Made by a program: the position numbers and the translations under genes. The notes below the pieces were generated by a model. The model did no database searches. It was not told where the DNA came from and saw nothing but the letters and a program-made list of their open reading frames with translations. Below, piece by piece: positions 7,193 through 18,188 of a DNA stretch of 27,603 bases. Source of the stretch: Gemmatimonadota bacterium (GTDB taxonomy: Bacteria > Gemmatimonadota > Gemmatimonadetes > Gemmatimonadales > GWC2-71-9); assembly GCA_031413355.1 (NCBI GenBank), contig JANOFA010000559.1, positions 1 through 27,603 of the forward strand, read 5' to 3'. How positions within the stretch are numbered: position 1 is the stretch's first letter; each line of letters opens with the position of its first letter.

Positions 7193-10100
7193 TCAATGGC
7201 GCCGGTAGGAAAGCGCCGGGCTCCTCCGACTCAGCGCTTGCAGCGGGGTCTGGCAGAGGGCTACCCAATCAGGGTCTCCATACGGAATGAACCTGTCAAT
7301 GACCACCGCAAAGCTCGTGGTAGTTCGTGTCACGCTGTAGCAGCCATGGGTCGGATCGCCGACAACCGCCGATCCAGTCTCAAACCACGTCGCGGTGACG
7401 CCGATCGGATCCATCATGTGCTGCTTGAAGGAGTAGTCGATCACGGAACGGCCGTTCACTCGAACGGGTGGACCGTTGGGCACTGGCTGATCGTTGGCGA
7501 CGGTCATGGAGTAGTAGTTGCTTCCAACGTTGAAGAATCCGGTTTCGTCCCTTTCACCGACTGCGAATTGTACGCCAGTCTGATCCCACGCCCCGTCCAC
7601 TCCTCTCAGGCCCGGGGTCCCGTTGCAACCTGTGCCCAGCACGGGATATGAGGGGCCGGCGGGCAAGGTGACCAGCCAGACCTGCTCGATCACGATCGGT
7701 TGAGCGCAGGTGGGTTGCGCGCTGGTGGTCGCGAACAACGCATGGCGGCCGTCAGGGGCGAACTGGAACCAGACGGGACCAGGAGAAGGAAGGCTGGGAA
7801 TCGCCAGCGTGCCCATGACAATCGGAGTTCCGGACGCTCCCCACTGGGAGCCGCGCAGTGTCGCGGTGTTCCCGTCAACAGCGACATCGGCGGTGTCTTT
7901 TTCCAGGTAGCGCCGGGCGAGAAGCGGATCAATGGTGCGCCGGACGCCCCATTGAGTGCTCACCAGTGCGTACTCATCCACGGCGGAGACGCCGGCACCA
8001 TTGTCGCGTGTGATGGAGAAGAGTCTGCCGCCCTGAGCAACACTCCCTGACAGAATATCCGAGAACGATGCTGGCATTGGAATCGTGTCCACAACGCCCG
8101 GGTTTCGCTCGAGGATGACGTGGGGATCGTTGGCCGGATACTCGAACCGGACGTTGATGCCGCAAATTGGCGTGCCCGGGCGTTCCTTCGAGAGCAGCGA
8201 GAGGGCACCATAGGCGTCGAGTTGGTAAACACCCGGAGCGTTCGCTACTGGCTGGGCAGGAACATTCAGGCCGGTAGTCGGATCAAGACGCTCGGTTTGG
8301 GCGCCTCGGGTGATGTAGCTCTTCAGATCGGCGGCATTGAGGTTGGGATCCATGGCGAGCAGCTGGACGGCGACACCTGCTACCATAGGGGTCGAAAGCG
8401 ATGTTCCGTTGTCCAACACCACGGGTCCTGAAAAGGTGAATCCACTATTCCGCGATCCGAGGATCGCGACCCTTTCTCCGGGTGCCGCGATGTCGGTGCC
8501 TCCAGAAAAATAGTTGGATCCTGAGGGGGGAGCAGTCCAAAGCGTATTCCCCGGGCTTGTCCCGGCAACGAAGAGAATCCGATCACCATAGCTGGGTGAC
8601 TGCAGCTTGAGGGTCATCAGCCCAGCCCGCAGAGCATTCGGCCCTCTTAGTCCGGCAAGCTGGCTGGCTGTCAGATTCCGGCTGTTCTCATTCCCGGTCG
8701 CAATGACGACCAAGGCGTTGGGGTTCTGGTCCAGAAACGCCTGGAGGGTTTCGACAAGGCGTGCCTGCAAGGCCGGACCGGTGGCACTATTTGATGGCGT
8801 GGCAATGGTAATCGACACAGAAAGTACGCGAATGCCATCAAGAGTTGCCGCTTCGAGAGCCTGCGCGAAAGCATTTCTAGTACTGAAAGTCACGCCGGCG
8901 TTGTTGCCCCCCAAGTGATAGAGGCGAAGGTCTGTCTTCCAAGCGACGCCGGCGATTCCCTGATCATTGTCACCCTTGGCAGACAGGAGCCCGGCCGCGG
9001 CGGTACCATGGTATGCGTATTTGGCCACTTCCAGGAGTGTCAGCGAATTGCTCGAGGCACCTGATGGAACGAACACGGGGCTTGTCCGCGAAGTGGAAAG
9101 GTCCGGATGGGTGGAGTCGAAGGCCCATTCTACTACGCCGACTTTCACCGGAGCGCCACCGTACTCACCTGTCTCGCATCCCCAAGCAAGTGGGGCGCGA
9201 ATCGCCCTCATCGCCCATGTGGTATCCGATACTGCATTCAGCCAATCTGCCCGCGCCAGGCTGGCTCCATCGGTCGGGAATCGCGACTCGACCAATGGCT
9301 TTCCCTCATATCGGGTCATCGGTGTGGTACTGCGCACAATGGGTTCAGCGCTCAAGCTGTCGAGACGCGCGAGGTAGGCTGCCCAGGTCGAACCCGGATC
9401 AGGGTATCGCACAATGTAAGTGCTGATGAAGGTATTGCCTCCGACGATCGCGGCCTGGTACTTCTGTAGCATGGCGGTGAATTGGGATCCAGTGGTCCCA
9501 GGCTTCAACTGCAATTCTGCCATCGTCCGGAAGTAGACGAACGCGGTATCGACGGGATCACGAATTGTCAGAAGCGAATCGTCGGGCACGGCGAAGCTGT
9601 TAGGAATTGGGGGCAGTGGCCCGCCCGCCACCAGCGCACTTGCCTGAAAGCTGAACCTGGCCTGCGTCACCGGGCTCATCACATTCACGCGGATGGTGTC
9701 CTGCACCGTCGAGTCATTCGCCGCCAGCGTCCCGGTCCCGCCCACGAACCAGATCTTCCCCCCACCCGCCTCCACACTGTCCGGGTTGAGCGGCACCACC
9801 TTCGACGCCGGTGTCCCTGCTGGCGCCACCACCGTGATGCCCGTGGACGGGAGATAGAGTCTGACGGGCATCTGCAGCGTCTGCCCGCTCTTGTTGAGCA
9901 ACCGCACGAACAGCGTGAGCCGCCGGTTGGGGCTCTGGGCCCAGGTGGCCGCCTGCCCCCGGATCAGCACCAGCCCCGCGGCGCCGCAAGTGGTGCGGTT
10001 GGGAAAGCTGGTGGTGACGGCGGTGGGGCTGGTGATGGTGAACTGCAGCTTGGCGCATAGGGTGTCGGCCACGACGAGGGTATTGGCCGCCACCTCCTGC

Positions 10101-10231
10101 GCTGCCTGCCGCGGCGCGGTCGAGTCCTCGTCGGTGCAGCCGAGCCCGGAGAGCGCGCACATCGTAAGGGCGAGGACGGTCAGCATGTGGCCGCTCCGGG
10201 CAGAGGGAAGGCGAACGCCAGAGTGGAACAT
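7193..10231 (-). CDS. S8 (subtilisin-family) serine protease lipoprotein, 1012 aa, with C-terminal beta-rich/propeller-like region
   Basis: GGAG 5 nt before ATG 10231; lipobox-like LSGLGC. Motifs VKVGVVEWAFDSTHPDL, YHGTAAAGLL, IAGVAW, ATGNE, DIAAPG, NGTSLSTPMVAGV; TolB-like FAPDGRHALF. Confidence 0.88.
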   Translation of the reverse strand: MFHSGVRLPSARSGHMLTVLALTMCALSGLGCTDEDSTAPRQAAQEVAANTLVVADTLCAKLQFTITSPTAVTTSFPNRTTCGAAGLVLIRGQAATWAQSPNRRLTLFVRLLNKSGQTLQMPVRLYLPSTGITVVAPAGTPASKVVPLNPDSVEAGGGKIWFVGGTGTLAANDSTVQDTIRVNVMSPVTQARFSFQASALVAGGPLPPIPNSFAVPDDSLLTIRDPVDTAFVYFRTMAELQLKPGTTGSQFTAMLQKYQAAIVGGNTFISTYIVRYPDPGSTWAAYLARLDSLSAEPIVRSTTPMTRYEGKPLVESRFPTDGASLARADWLNAVSDTTWAMRAIRAPLAWGCETGEYGGAPVKVGVVEWAFDSTHPDLSTSRTSPVFVPSGASSNSLTLLEVAKYAYHGTAAAGLLSAKGDNDQGIAGVAWKTDLRLYHLGGNNAGVTFSTRNAFAQALEAATLDGIRVLSVSITIATPSNSATGPALQARLVETLQAFLDQNPNALVVIATGNENSRNLTASQLAGLRGPNALRAGLMTLKLQSPSYGDRILFVAGTSPGNTLWTAPPSGSNYFSGGTDIAAPGERVAILGSRNSGFTFSGPVVLDNGTSLSTPMVAGVAVQLLAMDPNLNAADLKSYITRGAQTERLDPTTGLNVPAQPVANAPGVYQLDAYGALSLLSKERPGTPICGINVRFEYPANDPHVILERNPGVVDTIPMPASFSDILSGSVAQGGRLFSITRDNGAGVSAVDEYALVSTQWGVRRTIDPLLARRYLEKDTADVAVDGNTATLRGSQWGASGTPIVMGTLAIPSLPSPGPVWFQFAPDGRHALFATTSAQPTCAQPIVIEQVWLVTLPAGPSYPVLGTGCNGTPGLRGVDGAWDQTGVQFAVGERDETGFFNVGSNYYSMTVANDQPVPNGPPVRVNGRSVIDYSFKQHMMDPIGVTATWFETGSAVVGDPTHGCYSVTRTTTSFAVVIDRFIPYGDPDWVALCQTPLQALSRRSPALSYRRH

Positions 10232-10332
10232 GGATGCTCCGGGGGCCGGAGGGTGTGCGGCAGGACACAAAGGGTGATTTGGGGGTCCGTTCGACCATAA
10301 CCTGCGGGGGGGGCAGCGCAAGGGGGAGGGAA

Positions 10333-10865: not shown

Positions 10866-13739
10866 ATGGTTTCGTGGATCCGGTTCGCCGCCTCCCTGCT
10901 GCTCCCGCCCGTTCCCGCGGAATTCCCCGCGCAGGTTGTGGCCCATGCCACCGCCGCCGTCGAGGGCGACAGCGTCGCCACGGTTCGCGCGCGCTGGCAG
11001 CGGCGGCTGACCACAGACTCCACCGACCGCGCGGCGCGCCTCGGCCTCGCCACGCTTGACCGGCTGACTTACGACTACGCCGCTGCGGCGCTGGGCTACG
11101 GTCGCCTGACTGGCGACGACGCCTGGGCGCTGCATGCCCGGATGGGCGGCGCCCACAGCGACCTGTGGCGCGCACCGTTCGACCAGACCGTCTACCGGTA
11201 TCTCGCCGTCGCCAGCGGTGCCCGCGCCCTGGGTGACTCGAGTCTGGCCGCCGCCGCGCTCAGTGCCGCCGGGTTCCTCGGTTCGCGACTCGGTGCGATG
11301 GGGCCATCCCTCGACAGCCTCGACGTCGCCTTCCAGCTCGCGCCCCGATCCAACCCGGCATTGCAGGCCCGGGTGCTCTGCGCCCGCGCGCCGATCCTCT
11401 CCTTCGCCGGACGGCCTGGGGCCATGGCCACGGCACAACGCGGCCTCGCGCTCGTCCAGCAGACCGGTGATCGACGGACCCTGGGGCTCTGCTACCACGC
11501 CGTCGCGATGGTCGCGATCAACGATCTCGACGATTCTCGCATCCCCCTGGCTTACGCCGACAGCGCCGCAGCCGCCTGGCGTGCCGCCCGTGACGGACCG
11601 ATGCTGGCGCTATCCCACTATACAAAGGGATACACGCGCTTTAACTACGCCGACTTCGCCGGCGCCAAGGTGGCCCTGGGGGAGGCGATCATCGAGGCGG
11701 AGCGGACCGGCTCGCGCTTTGTCATCGCCTGGTCCCGTCGTTTCCTCTCCATGCTCTACTGGACCGCAGGCGACATCCCCGCCTCGGTCCAGGATTTTGC
11801 CCAGGCAGAGTCCCTATTCACCATGCTCAACGACGGCTTCGGCATCAGTCACACGCGGAACGGTCGGGCTTTCGCCCAACTGACGCTCGGACGGGTGGCG
11901 GAGGCGGAGGCCACCTTTCGCGCCCAACTCGCCGTCAGCGAGCGGAACGGGATGGCCGAAGGCGTCTTCGCCAACCTGCAGCACCTGTCGGCGGTGCGTT
12001 CGGTACGGGGCGACTGGAAGGGTGCCCGCGAGGAAATCGAACGGGCCGTGGCGTATGGGAATGCGAATGGCCACGCCGGATGGACCCCGAGTCTCGACTA
12101 CCGGCGCGGAGTGATCGCGCTTCGGCTCGGTGAGCTCGACCTGGCGGAGCGCGTCCTCCGGCGATTCCTCGGCAGCCTCGGACCTGAGCAGCACCTCGAT
12201 CGGTACGCCACCCGCACCCGGCTCGGAGAGGTCGCGGCCCAGCGGGGGGAGCTGGACCAGGCGGTCGCAGAACTGGAGCATGCCGGCCGACAGCTCGATT
12301 CGGCGCGGAGTGCGCTGACCGACACCCAGCTTCGCCTCCTGGTCTTCCAGACCCGCTCCGCCCTGGACGAACCCGATCTCGGCCTGGCCCCGATCGCCAC
12401 GATCCTGGTGCGCGGAGATTATGCCAGCGCAGCCTTCCGTCTGGCGGAAGCGCGTCGTGCCCGCACGCTGGAAGCGCAGCTCATCAGGTCGGCCGTCCTT
12501 CAGGGAGAGTCGACACCGGCGGGAGCAGCGCTCGATGCGATCCCCGACCTTCCCGCGCTGCAGGCCGGGTTGCCCGAGAGCCTGGCGGTGATCGCATGGC
12601 TGGCGGGACGTGGCGGTGCGGCCACGACCGCCTATGTCGTGACTCGCGACGACATCCAGGGGACGGTCCTGCCATCGATCGATTCCGTGGCGCACGACAT
12701 CGACCTCTACGTCGCGCTGCTGGAGCAGGGTGAGCCGAGCGATGCGGTGGGTCGGCGACTGGCAGACGCCATGCTCGCCCCCGCGGTGGCGCTGGTGCCC
12801 GCCGGGGTGAACCGTCTCATCCTCATTCCGGACGACCGGCTGCACCGGATTCCGTTCGATGCCCTGCCATTGCCGGATGGCCAGCCGCTCCTGCTGCGCT
12901 ATGGCGTGAGTCGCGCCCCCTCGGCGGCGATCGCGGTGCGGCTCGCCGCGCGGCCTCGGCGGACCGGCCTCCCCACGCTGCTGGCGTTCGGCGATCCGCG
13001 TACATCGTCGGCGGACGACAGTTCCCACAGTGATCCGGAGGCGGAGCGGTATCGCGGCGTCTTTGCGGAGGCCGGCGGCCTTCCCCGACTCAAGGGCAGT
13101 GCCGCGGAAGCCCGTGATGCCGGTCGCTTCAGTCGGAACGCGGTGGTCCGCCTGGGCCCTGAGGCCAGCGAGTCCTTTCTGAAAGGCCGGTCGCTTCGAT
13201 CGTTCCGTGTGATTCACCTGGCCACGCACGCCGTGGTGGACGATCAGTCAGAGAGCCGGACCTCGCTGGCACTCGCACCGGGTGGTGGCGAGGATGGTTT
13301 CCTCGGCGCCGGCGAGATTGGCGAACTTGACCTGGAGGCCGACCTGGTCGTGCTCTCCGCCTGTCGTACCGCGGCGGGTCGAGTCATTGGTGGCGAAGGA
13401 GTGCAGGGATTGGTCGCGCCGCTGCTGGGTGCCGGGGCGCGCGCGGTCGTCGCCTCGCTCTGGCCGATCGGCGATCGTGGCACCGCGACGCTGATGCAGG
13501 ACTTCTATGACGGGCTGGCCGACGGGAAGACGGTGGGCGAGGCGCTGCGGGACGCGAAACTGGCGGCGCGGGCCGACGGGACGCCACCGAAAATCTGGGC
13601 GGCCTTCACGCTGGTGGGCGATCCCGATATCCGGATCCCGCTCGAGCACGGGAGGACGGTCCCGTGGTTCTACATCGGGGGAATCGTCCTGCTGCTCGCT
13701 GTGCTGGCCGCGTGGCGGATCAGGGTGCGCGCAGGCTGA
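10866..13739 (+). CDS. TPR-CHAT (caspase-like, clan CD) protease with C-terminal membrane anchor, 957 aa
   Basis: Helical TPR-like N-terminal two thirds. CHAT motifs LILIPDDRLHRIPFDAL, IHLATHAVV (His788), LVVLSACRT (Cys833), VVASLWPIGD, WAAFTLVG. Terminal hydrophobic helix WFYIGGIVLLLAVLAAW; possible signal peptide. Confidence 0.92.
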   Translation: MVSWIRFAASLLLPPVPAEFPAQVVAHATAAVEGDSVATVRARWQRRLTTDSTDRAARLGLATLDRLTYDYAAAALGYGRLTGDDAWALHARMGGAHSDLWRAPFDQTVYRYLAVASGARALGDSSLAAAALSAAGFLGSRLGAMGPSLDSLDVAFQLAPRSNPALQARVLCARAPILSFAGRPGAMATAQRGLALVQQTGDRRTLGLCYHAVAMVAINDLDDSRIPLAYADSAAAAWRAARDGPMLALSHYTKGYTRFNYADFAGAKVALGEAIIEAERTGSRFVIAWSRRFLSMLYWTAGDIPASVQDFAQAESLFTMLNDGFGISHTRNGRAFAQLTLGRVAEAEATFRAQLAVSERNGMAEGVFANLQHLSAVRSVRGDWKGAREEIERAVAYGNANGHAGWTPSLDYRRGVIALRLGELDLAERVLRRFLGSLGPEQHLDRYATRTRLGEVAAQRGELDQAVAELEHAGRQLDSARSALTDTQLRLLVFQTRSALDEPDLGLAPIATILVRGDYASAAFRLAEARRARTLEAQLIRSAVLQGESTPAGAALDAIPDLPALQAGLPESLAVIAWLAGRGGAATTAYVVTRDDIQGTVLPSIDSVAHDIDLYVALLEQGEPSDAVGRRLADAMLAPAVALVPAGVNRLILIPDDRLHRIPFDALPLPDGQPLLLRYGVSRAPSAAIAVRLAARPRRTGLPTLLAFGDPRTSSADDSSHSDPEAERYRGVFAEAGGLPRLKGSAAEARDAGRFSRNAVVRLGPEASESFLKGRSLRSFRVIHLATHAVVDDQSESRTSLALAPGGGEDGFLGAGEIGELDLEADLVVLSACRTAAGRVIGGEGVQGLVAPLLGAGARAVVASLWPIGDRGTATLMQDFYDGLADGKTVGEALRDAKLAARADGTPPKIWAAFTLVGDPDIRIPLEHGRTVPWFYIGGIVLLLAVLAAWRIRVRAG

Positions 13740-14343
13740 AGCTGCTGGTGGTGGAGCGATAGGTGCGGACATCCTCGGTGTACGCCGTGACCGACCAGAG
13801 GTAGCGCCGGCCGGGGACCAGAGACTCCGCCGGAACGGCGCTGGCGACGGTATCGACGACTCGTGTCGCGAATACGACCGCCCCGCTGCTATCCAAAACC
13901 TCCAGACGATAATCGACCGCACGCGGGACCCGGTGCCACACGAACACCGGCGTCGCCGTCAGCTCCGCGCCATCGACGGGGTGCAGGGTGACAACCGCCG
14001 CACGCCCGCCGCGCAGCGGCTCCGTGGTTTCGCGCTGCAGGGCGTACAGCAGACCAACTCCCGCCACCACAACGATGCCTGCCGCGGCCCGCCATGCGGC
14101 GCGGTTATACCACCGGGAGCGGACCGGTCGGCCGGCAATCATCACCGCCCGCAGCAGTTCGAATTCCGCGCGACGGCGGGGATCGAACAAGATCTGCTGC
14201 AGCGTGCGCAGGCGCTCGGCCTCGCTGCCGCGTCGTTCGAGAATCGCCACCATCGCCTCGAGCGACACCGGCTCGGCGTCACTGGTGTCCGGGCGCCTGG
14301 CCATGGCCCCGGCGTAGAGCGCCCGCAAGCGGTCGTCGTTCAT
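13720..14343 (-). CDS. Putative single-pass anti-sigma factor, 207 aa
   Basis: ATGA overlap with the sigma gene stop. N-terminal helical domain resembles a zf-HC/ZAS fold lacking the Zn ligands, then TM helix AAWRAAAGIVVVAGVGLLYAL, then a C-terminal Ig/FN3-like domain (PVFVWHRVP..YRLEVLD..YLWSVTA). Confidence 0.75.
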   Translation of the reverse strand: MNDDRLRALYAGAMARRPDTSDAEPVSLEAMVAILERRGSEAERLRTLQQILFDPRRRAEFELLRAVMIAGRPVRSRWYNRAAWRAAAGIVVVAGVGLLYALQRETTEPLRGGRAAVVTLHPVDGAELTATPVFVWHRVPRAVDYRLEVLDSSGAVVFATRVVDTVASAVPAESLVPGRRYLWSVTAYTEDVRTYRSTTSSFSLRAP

Positions 14344-14888
14344 GCCGACTCCTCCGGTCCGATGCCCCGGGCCTGCAGCCGTTCCCGCAGGTCCGCCAGC
14401 CCGCGGTACAGCAGATGGCGGGTGCGCGGTTCACTCCAATCGAACAGGTCCGCGATCTCCTCCCGGGTATAGCCGGAGAGGTACAGTCGGACCACGCCAG
14501 CCCGGTCGGGAGTGAGGCCGTCAACTTCCCGGGCGATCGCCTCGCCCAGCTCGCGGTCAATCAGCGGCGCGTCGGCTGCCGGACTCGCACCGAGTCGTGC
14601 CTCGCCGCTCGGGCGTTCCAGGCCGGCCGGTGTTTCCCGTCGGGCGCGACGCCGCCGGAGCAGGTCGATCGCCGCCGACATGGCGGTGCGATAGACATAA
14701 GACGCCGGAGTGCTGGCCGGGTTCCCGCGGCCGGGGTCCGAGCGCCACAGCCGGATGCGGACCTCCTGAAAGACCTCATCGATCCGATCGTCGAGCCCGT
14801 AGCGCCAGGCCAACCCGCGCACCTGCTCGGCGCAGCGGGTGATCAGCGCCTCAAGGGCCTGTTCGTCGGGAGGGGGAGATTCGGTCAT
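14340..14888 (-). CDS. ECF RNA polymerase sigma factor, 182 aa
   Basis: Region 2 DEVFQEVRIRLWR..SYVYRTAMSAAIDLLRRRR. Region 4 LTPDRAGVVRLYLSGYTREEIADLFDWSEPRTRHLLYRGLADLR. Confidence 0.92.
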   Translation of the reverse strand: MTESPPPDEQALEALITRCAEQVRGLAWRYGLDDRIDEVFQEVRIRLWRSDPGRGNPASTPASYVYRTAMSAAIDLLRRRRARRETPAGLERPSGEARLGASPAADAPLIDRELGEAIAREVDGLTPDRAGVVRLYLSGYTREEIADLFDWSEPRTRHLLYRGLADLRERLQARGIGPEESA

Positions 14889-15151
14889 GAGGGCGCGGGT
14901 TCCGCTGTGGGCGGCGGTGTGTGACGGGGAAAGCTGGCACGCGGAAGCTACGGCGACCGGAGTCAGACGCAACCTGGGCGGAGGGGGCGAGGGTCACGCG
15001 TCCAGAGTCGAGCAAAAGTCGCGGATCGATCCTCATGGTGCTTGACCCGCGCCGAAGTGGGAATAGTTCCGGGCCAGGCGCGTCACAGGAGGAGACCTGG
15101 CTTGGCGGTCCCGGTCGATTCGGCGGGTCCACCCCCCACAGGAGAGTCGCC

Positions 15152-17159: not shown

Positions 17160-17910
17160 CCTTGATTCTGGACTCGTGCGCGCGGCATACGCAGCGCCCG
17201 GCCCGTGCGCAGGCAGGCGGTCAGCTCCCGGCGCAAGGCCCCGCGGCCTTGGACGTACAGCGCTTGGTAGATGGCCTCGTGACTGATGCGCATGGACGGA
17301 CTGTCCGGAAAATCACACCGCAGGCGGTGGGAAATCTGCTCAGGACTCCACGCCAGCGCCCAGCGGCGATGTTGGCGTGGGCCGTGGCGTCGTGCGTCCC
17401 CAAGCGCGCGGCCTTCGGTCGGCGCGCCGCCCGATCCGCATGCCACTGGGCCGTCGTGGCCCGGTAGGCGAGGCCACCGCTCCGCGTCGCGGCATTGCGC
17501 CGTAACTCGCGTGAAATGGTCGAGGGGGCGCGGCCCAAGCGACGCGCACTCTCCCGCACGCCACATCCTTGGGCGCGCAGGATCGCGAGTTCTTCGCGCT
17601 CTGCGTAAGACAGGTACCGCACGGATCGCGGCGGCGCGGAGGCCGCCAGATGTGATGGAGGCATACCGCCCCACTCCCGGAACCATCGTCCGCCTACGGG
17701 TGGGGAAACGCCCGCCGTCCGCGCCGCGTCCTCACTCGACTGGCCCGACGCGACGGCGACCCAGAATCGCCGCCGCTCCGCACGGTGCACCGCCGGCGGG
17801 CGCCCCAGTGATCGTAACATGCGGCGCCCCGCCCGGTCAGACCGCCGCTTCTGCTTCTTCGCCATTGCCCACCTTGTTGGTCGAGGTGTTGCAACGACCG
17901 ATTGAATCCA
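17160..17910 (-). pseudogene. IS30-family transposase fragment with its left inverted repeat
   Basis: The minus strand from 17910 reads TGGATTCAATCGGTCGTTGCAACAC (IS30-type IR). From ATG 17865: YLSYAEREELAILRAQG..LGRAPSTISRELRRN, frameshift near 17400, then WSPEQISHRL..ISHEAIYQALYVQGRGALRRELTACLRTGR. Truncated before the DDE domain. Confidence 0.9.
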
Positions 17911-17912
17911 CC

Positions 17913-18188
17913 CAATACACCAGTGAGGCCTTCCAGCGGTTACTCCACGAGCTCGGGGTCACCTGTAGCATGAGCCGCTCGGGCAATGTCTGGGACAACG
18001 CGGTGATGGAGCGTTTCTTCTCGACGCTGAAAACGGAGCGGACGCACGGGAAGCGCTACGGCACGCGGAATGCCGCCCGGGCCGACGTCTTCGACTTCAT
18101 CGAGCGGTTCTACAACCCCGTGCGGCGACACTCGACCCTGGGTAACATCAGTCCTGTGGCGTTTGAACTGGCAACAGCAGTAGCGTAA
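17913..18188 (+). pseudogene. IS3-family OrfB (integrase core) C-terminal fragment
   Basis: QYTSEAFQRLL..SMSRSGNVWDNAVMERFFSTLKTE..FIERFYNPVRRHSTLGNISP. Confidence 0.92.

Follow-up and report, generated by a model that had tools for sequence, protein, structure and literature searches.

The window considered here, meaning the whole 27,603-nt stretch of DNA that was analyzed, raises the question of whether a CHAT domain protease cuts the anti-sigma factor encoded beside it, at an arginine in the short linker just outside the membrane helix. The initial annotation of this DNA placed the cut between residues R111 and G112 of the anti-sigma factor. We address the question by way of the architecture of the anti-sigma factor, the conservation of the arginine, the topology and catalytic residues of the CHAT protein, and the linkage of the two genes across the phylum.

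Sigma Factor Gene and Architecture of the Anti-sigma Factor

The ECF sigma factor gene (14340..14972, minus strand) was identified by matches to Pfam Sigma70_r2 and Sigma70_r4_2 and to NCBIfam sigma70-ECF (1.5e-18); its longest open reading frame starts at a TTG codon at 14972, and the likely start is Met29, at 14888. The sequence reads as an ATGA junction in which the sigma stop codon overlaps the start codon of the anti-sigma gene (13720..14343, minus strand), and the sigma gene adjoins the anti-sigma gene in the orthologous loci as well. The 207-aa product is assigned as a single-pass anti-sigma factor on the basis of its translation, its AlphaFold2 (AF2) model, FN3 fold matches, and the HxxxCxxC motif and zf-HC2 matches of its relatives. 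All on the minus strand, its predicted parts are a helical cytoplasmic anti-sigma domain (14131-14343), a transmembrane (TM) helix (14035-14103), a tether that corresponds to a low-confidence AF2 stretch (13996-14034), and an FN3-like domain (residues 117-207; 13723-13995). The protein has no match among curated families.

The AF2 model, built on 38 homologs, contains four N-terminal helices (residues 3-71) and a long helix at residues 81-103, in good agreement with the TM helix that the initial annotation had put at about residues 83-102; the Arg-rich flank N-terminal to this helix is consistent with an N-in topology. Beyond the helix, pLDDT falls below 50 at residues 104-110 and averages 74 over residues 111-120, and a beta sandwich (residues 117-204), the strands of which begin at 117-121, is modelled with confidence. 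FN3/Ig-like folds match this C-terminal domain, although Pfam Ig_Rha78A_N and fn3 do so only weakly. The description of an exposed linker ahead of an Ig-like domain is therefore borne out by both the model and the fold matches.

Class I (ZAS-type) anti-sigma factors include zinc-free members. In the window's anti-sigma factor the zinc motif HxxxCxxC is replaced by Q-ILF-D-PR-R, such that all of the zinc ligands (H to Q, C to D, C to R) are lost, as they are in its closest homologs; the motif is kept in more distant homologs and in a paralog encoded in the same genome, and zf-HC2 matches three of the 38 family members. Because zinc-free class I members are known, the absence of the ligands lowers only the claim of zinc binding; here the gene is coupled to a sigma gene and the protein spans the membrane once, both consistent with a class I anti-sigma factor whose zinc ligands have been lost. 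Additional sigma genes, and also anti-sigma paralogs, occur within the genus (L047:10165-10674, minus strand; G000:C344:757-987 and C408:954-1187), and in these paralogs only the N-terminal 75 residues are common to the family, the periplasmic parts being different.

An Arginine Motif in the Tether

Minus-strand translation confirms that positions 14005..14022 encode residues 108-113 of the anti-sigma factor, E108-P-L-R111-G112-G113, with R111 situated 8 residues past the TM helix. A metagenomic search of 5.8 billion proteins yielded 38 relatives, including one from a Gemmatimonadaceae bacterium, and in a MAFFT alignment of these 38 homologs, which extend down to 30% identity, R111 is one of 13 invariant columns. 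When 401 genomes of the phylum were searched with a profile of the family, 147 gave matches (a tally that includes the unpublished genomes G157 and G057, which enter into none of the other results given here); 84 loci were retrieved, of which 26 are clear orthologs of the window gene, and the Arg is kept in all 26, which come from separate species genomes.

Across 78 non-identical sequences, an Arg occupies the putative P1 position in 74 (95%), and the family motif can be written (E/D)-(V/P)-(L/V/T/M)-R-(G/A/S)-(G/A), with EPLRGG as the window's copy. The P4 position is acidic in 66% (Glu in 28/74, Asp in 21/74), and the remaining residues include Pro, Gly, Thr, and Ala; P3 is V or P, P2 is L, V, T, or M, and P2' is G or A. 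The P1' position is Gly in ~65% and G, A, or S in 89%; a few sequences have Asp, Glu, or Asn there instead. In the linker columns around the Arg the commonest residue reaches just 13-38%. Thus, the expectation that an RG dipeptide would be conserved in an otherwise variable linker holds for the Arg, which is invariant in the window's clade amid variable neighbors, and only partly for the Gly; similarly, the Arg of the proposed ExxR motif is fixed, but its acidic P4 residue is not strict. On the alignments, both "RG" and "ExxR" are tendencies, with the Arg alone fixed.

The motif was also assessed independently of any alignment. The pattern [DE]..R[GAS] is present in 50 of the 78 linkers, compared with 6.6 +/- 2.4 (maximum 17) after within-linker shuffling, a ~7-fold enrichment that is not to be read as a probability because the sequences are related. 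Neither the TM helix nor the first FN3 strand lies at a constant distance from the Arg, inserts of up to ~9 residues being present, and the family alignment has no conserved stretch of 7-10 columns. Variable spacing on both sides, together with the low AF2 confidence, indicates that the Arg belongs to a linear motif and is not a residue of the fold. Judged from these comparisons, the Arg motif is a genuine short linear motif in a flexible tether, present above chance.

The TPR-CHAT Protease: Topology and Catalytic Residues

The protein encoded on the opposite strand (10866..13739, plus strand; 957 aa from the Met at 10866) has matches to Pfam CHAT (3.8e-64) and TPR, and is predicted to be an exported, membrane-anchored protease. 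It has a signal-like N-terminus (10866-10934), at a position where the orthologs start with signal or lipoprotein-like peptides, and a CHAT domain (12744-13622) that is followed ~14 residues later by a C-terminal TM anchor with a basic tail (RIRVRAG; 13650..13736), all on the plus strand. A C-terminal TM helix and basic tail within ~15 residues of the CHAT domain are found in most CHAT orthologs of the window's clade. The combination of an N-terminal export signal and a C-terminal anchor places the catalytic domain at the periplasmic face of the membrane, beside the tether motif.

When PDB sequences were searched, phmmer with the whole CHAT protein gave no match and a full-length profile was swamped by TPR matches; a profile of the CHAT domain matched DdvA, Csx29, and separase, the best match being DdvA (8rot, 7e-12). 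The catalytic His788 (codon 13227..13229, plus strand), within ATHA, aligns with H862 of DdvA and with the CHG histidine of Csx29, and the catalytic Cys833 (codon 13362..13364, plus strand), within LSAC, aligns with C907 of DdvA. Cys833 is invariant in 26-sequence alignments, and its equivalent is present in every CHAT with a readable dyad. Every readable CHAT of the window's clade has both the His and the Cys of the dyad, as do 49/49 when a second clade is counted with it.

The residue that would bind a P1 Arg is less clear-cut. Separase uses an invariant Asp, 41 residues past the catalytic Cys (D2151 in C. thermophilum), to pair with the P1 Arg (PMC10317155). We treated the alignment with separase as ungapped because there are 52 positions on each side, and the C+41 Asp then maps to W+8, which is Ala874 in the window's protein and is non-acidic across the family. 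One helical turn earlier, at W+4 of a WxxxD motif, lies the invariant Asp870 (codon 13473..13475, plus strand), a position that is Asp in DdvA and Ser in Csx29; Asp870 is a possible S1 acidic residue. Elsewhere in the same genome, contig C67 carries a Peptidase_M50 (RseP-like) gene (1.4e-60).

Linkage of the CHAT and Anti-sigma Genes

The anti-sigma and CHAT genes do not form one operon and are not co-transcribed: they are convergent, with a 20-bp overlap of the two 3' ends (window 13720-13739). Tail-to-tail overlap or near-abutment (0-50 bp) is common among the orthologous loci. Antisense effects of the 20-bp overlap could couple expression of the CHAT and anti-sigma genes. A TPR-CHAT gene adjoins the anti-sigma gene in 24/26 orthologous loci, and in most of the distant loci too. 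The two genes lie beside each other in four different gene arrangements: the convergent one is commonest, L038 and L042 are divergent, the order in L041 is CHAT-sigma-anti-sigma, and in distant clades the anti-sigma gene is followed by CHAT. In three genera the two are fused in frame (L071:2223-6548, minus strand; L072:1777-6024, plus strand; L073:2058-6101, minus strand), such that a single frame encodes the anti-sigma domain (with HxxxCxxC), TM helix, Arg tether, FN3 domain, and TPR-CHAT. A second anti-sigma/TPR-CHAT pair in the window's own genome (contig C1002; L074:1659-5065) is co-directional, has intact zinc ligands, the tether A-D-E-L-R-G-D, and an intact dyad, and its CHAT groups with the window's clade.

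At the level of whole genomes, of the 147 that have a family match, 117 also have a CHAT gene; in the other 30, the matches are weak or confined to the N-terminus, except for one gene whose contig stops 2 kb downstream of it. Among the 401 genomes, there is no clean case of a genome that keeps the anti-sigma factor but lacks any CHAT gene. The Arg is kept at four loci that have no CHAT gene within 5-8 kb (L048, L052, L060, and L092); their genomes do carry CHAT genes, and those of L048 and L052 were seen to contain a second copy that is linked to CHAT. Overall, the gene neighborhoods and genome tallies point to a strong link between the motif family and CHAT.

With regard to the other neighbors of the pair, an S8 subtilase (1042 aa; 7193-10321, minus strand) diverges from the CHAT gene. 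It was considered as the cognate protease and rejected, as none of the 40 loci compared has it. An integrase-core (rve) gene (17286-18188, plus strand) lies 2.3 kb past the sigma gene, and the CHAT/anti-sigma module may be located in a variable or mobile stretch.

A Proposed Model for Site-1 Cleavage of the Anti-sigma Factor

We propose that the window encodes a signalling module of three proteins: the ECF sigma factor; the single-pass anti-sigma factor, in which a TM helix and a flexible tether connect a degenerate zinc-type anti-sigma domain to an FN3-like domain; and the exported TPR-CHAT cysteine protease, which its C-terminal anchor would hold at the outer face of the inner membrane. The tether motif, (E/D)-x-hydrophobic-R-(G/A/S), would enter the active-site cleft of CHAT. 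In the window's clade, signal-dependent site-1 cleavage after R111 would be the most likely event; the cut would remove the FN3 domain, after which an RseP-type site-2 protease would cut the TM helix and thereby free the sigma factor. Of this model, the conserved motif, the gene linkage, the topology, the intact dyad, and the site-2 protease gene are what the analysis shows; that the motif touches the protease, which bond is cut, what triggers the cut, and what follows it are inferred.

Cleavage by CHAT after R111 (R111/G112) is offered as a tentative proposal, to which we would give somewhat less than an even chance. The conservation of the Arg, the adjacency of the CHAT gene, the predicted periplasmic location of CHAT, its intact dyad, and the site-2 protease gene in the genome all fit a cut site. 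Several comparative observations speak against one: the Arg is kept opposite CHAT domains that have no catalytic His; the position corresponding to the S1 Asp of separase is non-acidic; P4 is not always acidic, and P1' is sometimes Asp, Glu, or Asn; and four loci have the Arg but no nearby CHAT. In addition, the specificity of CHAT proteases is known to vary, as the initial annotation itself cautioned; Csx29 is not Arg-specific and cuts after Met or Leu. Taken together, the cut-site interpretation is plausible, and the comparative data have made it sharper.

CHAT Domains Lacking the Catalytic Histidine and Other Possible Roles of the Arginine

A tree of 74 CHAT domains resolves three clades, two of which, the window's among them, keep the catalytic His. 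The third clade comprises 25 loci (L058, L061-L064, L067, L071-L073, L078, L082, L083, L085-L087, L089-L091, L094, L096, L102, L103, L105, L107, and L113), including all three fusions; here Tyr, Phe, Asn, Leu, Arg, or Ala occupies the position of the catalytic His, and Cys, Trp, and the W+4 Asp are all still present. The tether Arg is equally conserved in this His-less clade, in the context (H/Y)-R-(E/A/G)-P, and its conservation is therefore independent of a canonical active protease. For the Arg of the His-less clade, docking in the cleft fits as well as cleavage does.

These loci bear on the first alternative, namely that the Arg tether is a docking or pseudosubstrate element that binds TPR-CHAT, in the S1 cleft or at an exosite, and is not cleaved. 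The complex of FN3 domain, tether, and TPR-CHAT would then constitute a steric block to the site-2 protease, or a sensor, and any catalysis by CHAT would be directed at some other substrate (for example a signal protein, or the anti-sigma factor at a different site). Such a role would account for the retention of the Arg where a CHAT without the catalytic His has preserved its Cys, Trp, and W+4 Asp, and for the fact that all of the in-frame fusions are of the His-less type. There are precedents, in that securin is an uncleaved pseudosubstrate bound to separase (PMC10317155), and the bulky TPR-CHAT of DdvA blocks RseP (PMC11506125). However, the strict preservation of the dyad across the two other clades (49/49 readable) argues for selection for catalysis, and a small residue after the Arg together with a hydrophobic one before it is typical of scissile sites; we consider uncleaved docking to be unlikely.

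A second alternative is that the Arg motif is the site of a different, unlinked periplasmic protease or processing enzyme, with TPR-CHAT either gating access to it or being unrelated. To our knowledge, all characterized anti-sigma site-1 proteases are unlinked housekeeping enzymes, which lends this explanation some appeal, as do the Arg motifs at L048, L052, L060, and L092, where no CHAT gene lies within 5-8 kb, and those that have His-less CHAT partners. Nevertheless, for full-length family members the co-occurrence with CHAT is near complete at the genome level, the loci without a nearby CHAT are themselves in CHAT-bearing genomes (with a second CHAT-linked copy in the case of L048 and L052), the neighboring S8 subtilase was not found at the 40 loci compared, and no candidate Arg-specific periplasmic protease was identified. 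We regard an unlinked enzyme as improbable to much the same degree as uncleaved docking.

That the Arg has a structural or biophysical role requiring no partner, such as capping the first FN3 strand, forming a salt bridge to the conserved FN3 Asp-Thr, or contacting lipid head groups or peptidoglycan, is very unlikely: R111 is at the edge of the modelled domain (mean pLDDT 74 over residues 111-120) and the FN3 core Asp164 is nearly invariant, but the spacing of the Arg to the first FN3 strand and to the TM helix is variable and tolerates inserts, AF2 packs R111 without confidence, and the acidic P4, hydrophobic P2, and small P1' residues resemble a recognition motif.

Least probable of all, to the point of being speculative, is the notion that the Arg motif is a universal element for the S1 cleft of CHAT and that, in the His-less clade, a P2 His from the substrate supplies the missing base. 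If true, such substrate-assisted catalysis would limit each CHAT to cutting its own anti-sigma factor. A His directly precedes the Arg at 15/25 His-less loci, versus 0/50 loci with a His-intact partner; yet when P2-His and His-less CHAT are compared on the tree this amounts to 1-2 changes, and the correlation carries little statistical weight because a single origin can explain the His-less group.

Comparison With Known Systems

Site-1 cleavage of the anti-sigma factor by CHAT, as proposed here, would resemble the classical regulated intramembrane proteolysis of the RseA/DegS/RseP, RsiW/PrsW, and RsiV systems in that a juxtamembrane or periplasmic site-1 cut would take off a bulky domain and be followed by release of the sigma factor by an M50 site-2 protease. 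In those systems, however, the site-1 enzymes are serine proteases, metalloproteases, or signal peptidase, and are usually unlinked; none of these classical enzymes is known to be Arg-specific or caspase-like.

Craspase (Csx29, Csx30, Csx31, and RpoE; type III-E CRISPR) likewise has a TPR-CHAT protease, Csx29, which cuts a protein that is associated with an ECF-type sigma factor (PMC10028731). Unlike the module described here, Craspase is cytoplasmic, is activated by RNA-guided Cas7-11, and cuts after Met or Leu, and Csx29 has Ser at the position of the invariant W+4 Asp.

Separase is a CHAT-type protease whose substrates are cut after the Arg of (S/D/E)xExxR (PMC11506125). The window's protease shares with it a TPR-like region combined with a CHAT-type clan CD protease domain, and the putative P1 Arg is likewise in an unstructured segment with an acidic P4; separase also has pseudosubstrates that remain uncleaved. 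The differences are that separase is eukaryotic and cytoplasmic, that its P4 Glu is invariant whereas P4 here is E/D in 66%, and that its C+41 S1 Asp is without an acidic counterpart in this CHAT family.

The closest parallel is DdvA of Myxococcus xanthus, a fused ZASD-TM-linker-TPR-CHAT protein that is the anti-sigma factor of DdvS (PMC11506125; PDB 8rot, 8rw5). The active site of its CHAT domain faces the linker of the partner protomer, and its authors proposed signal-induced autoproteolysis of the linker followed by RseP; dependence on RseP was shown for truncated forms only, dyad mutants had no phenotype, and autoproteolysis was not seen (PMC11506125). The same authors noted that site-1 cleavage of an anti-sigma factor by CHAT would have no precedent, and that its validation must await identification of the signal; DdvA-like proteins were reported from Myxococcota and one Comamonas only (PMC11506125). 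As with DdvA and DdvS, the window pairs an ECF sigma factor with a single-pass anti-sigma factor that has a zinc-type N-terminal domain, together with a periplasmic TPR-CHAT that has a His-Cys dyad (His788/Cys833 align with H862/C907) and the W+4 Asp, a flexible juxtamembrane linker as the proposed CHAT target, and an RseP-type site-2 protease. Unlike DdvA, the window's protease is exported and anchored in the membrane independently of the anti-sigma factor, as the product of a convergent gene of its own; the anti-sigma factor ends in an FN3 domain and has lost its zinc ligands; the tether has a defined, invariant Arg motif; and no defense island was identified as the regulon.

Judging from sequence, the window's module is a split DdvA-like form with an additional FN3 domain and a defined Arg motif, and the three fusions (L071-L073) are DdvA-like proteins outside the taxa from which such proteins have been reported; we found no description of the split module in the literature. 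The logic is the same as in DdvA, but protease and substrate are separate and there is one invariant residue to mutate, which makes the question testable in vitro with two purified periplasmic fragments. If cleavage after R111 is true, the tether would be the first defined trans substrate site of a periplasmic bacterial CHAT protease, and the module would represent a caspase-like route of ECF sigma activation that is widespread in the phylum (147/401 genomes with family matches).
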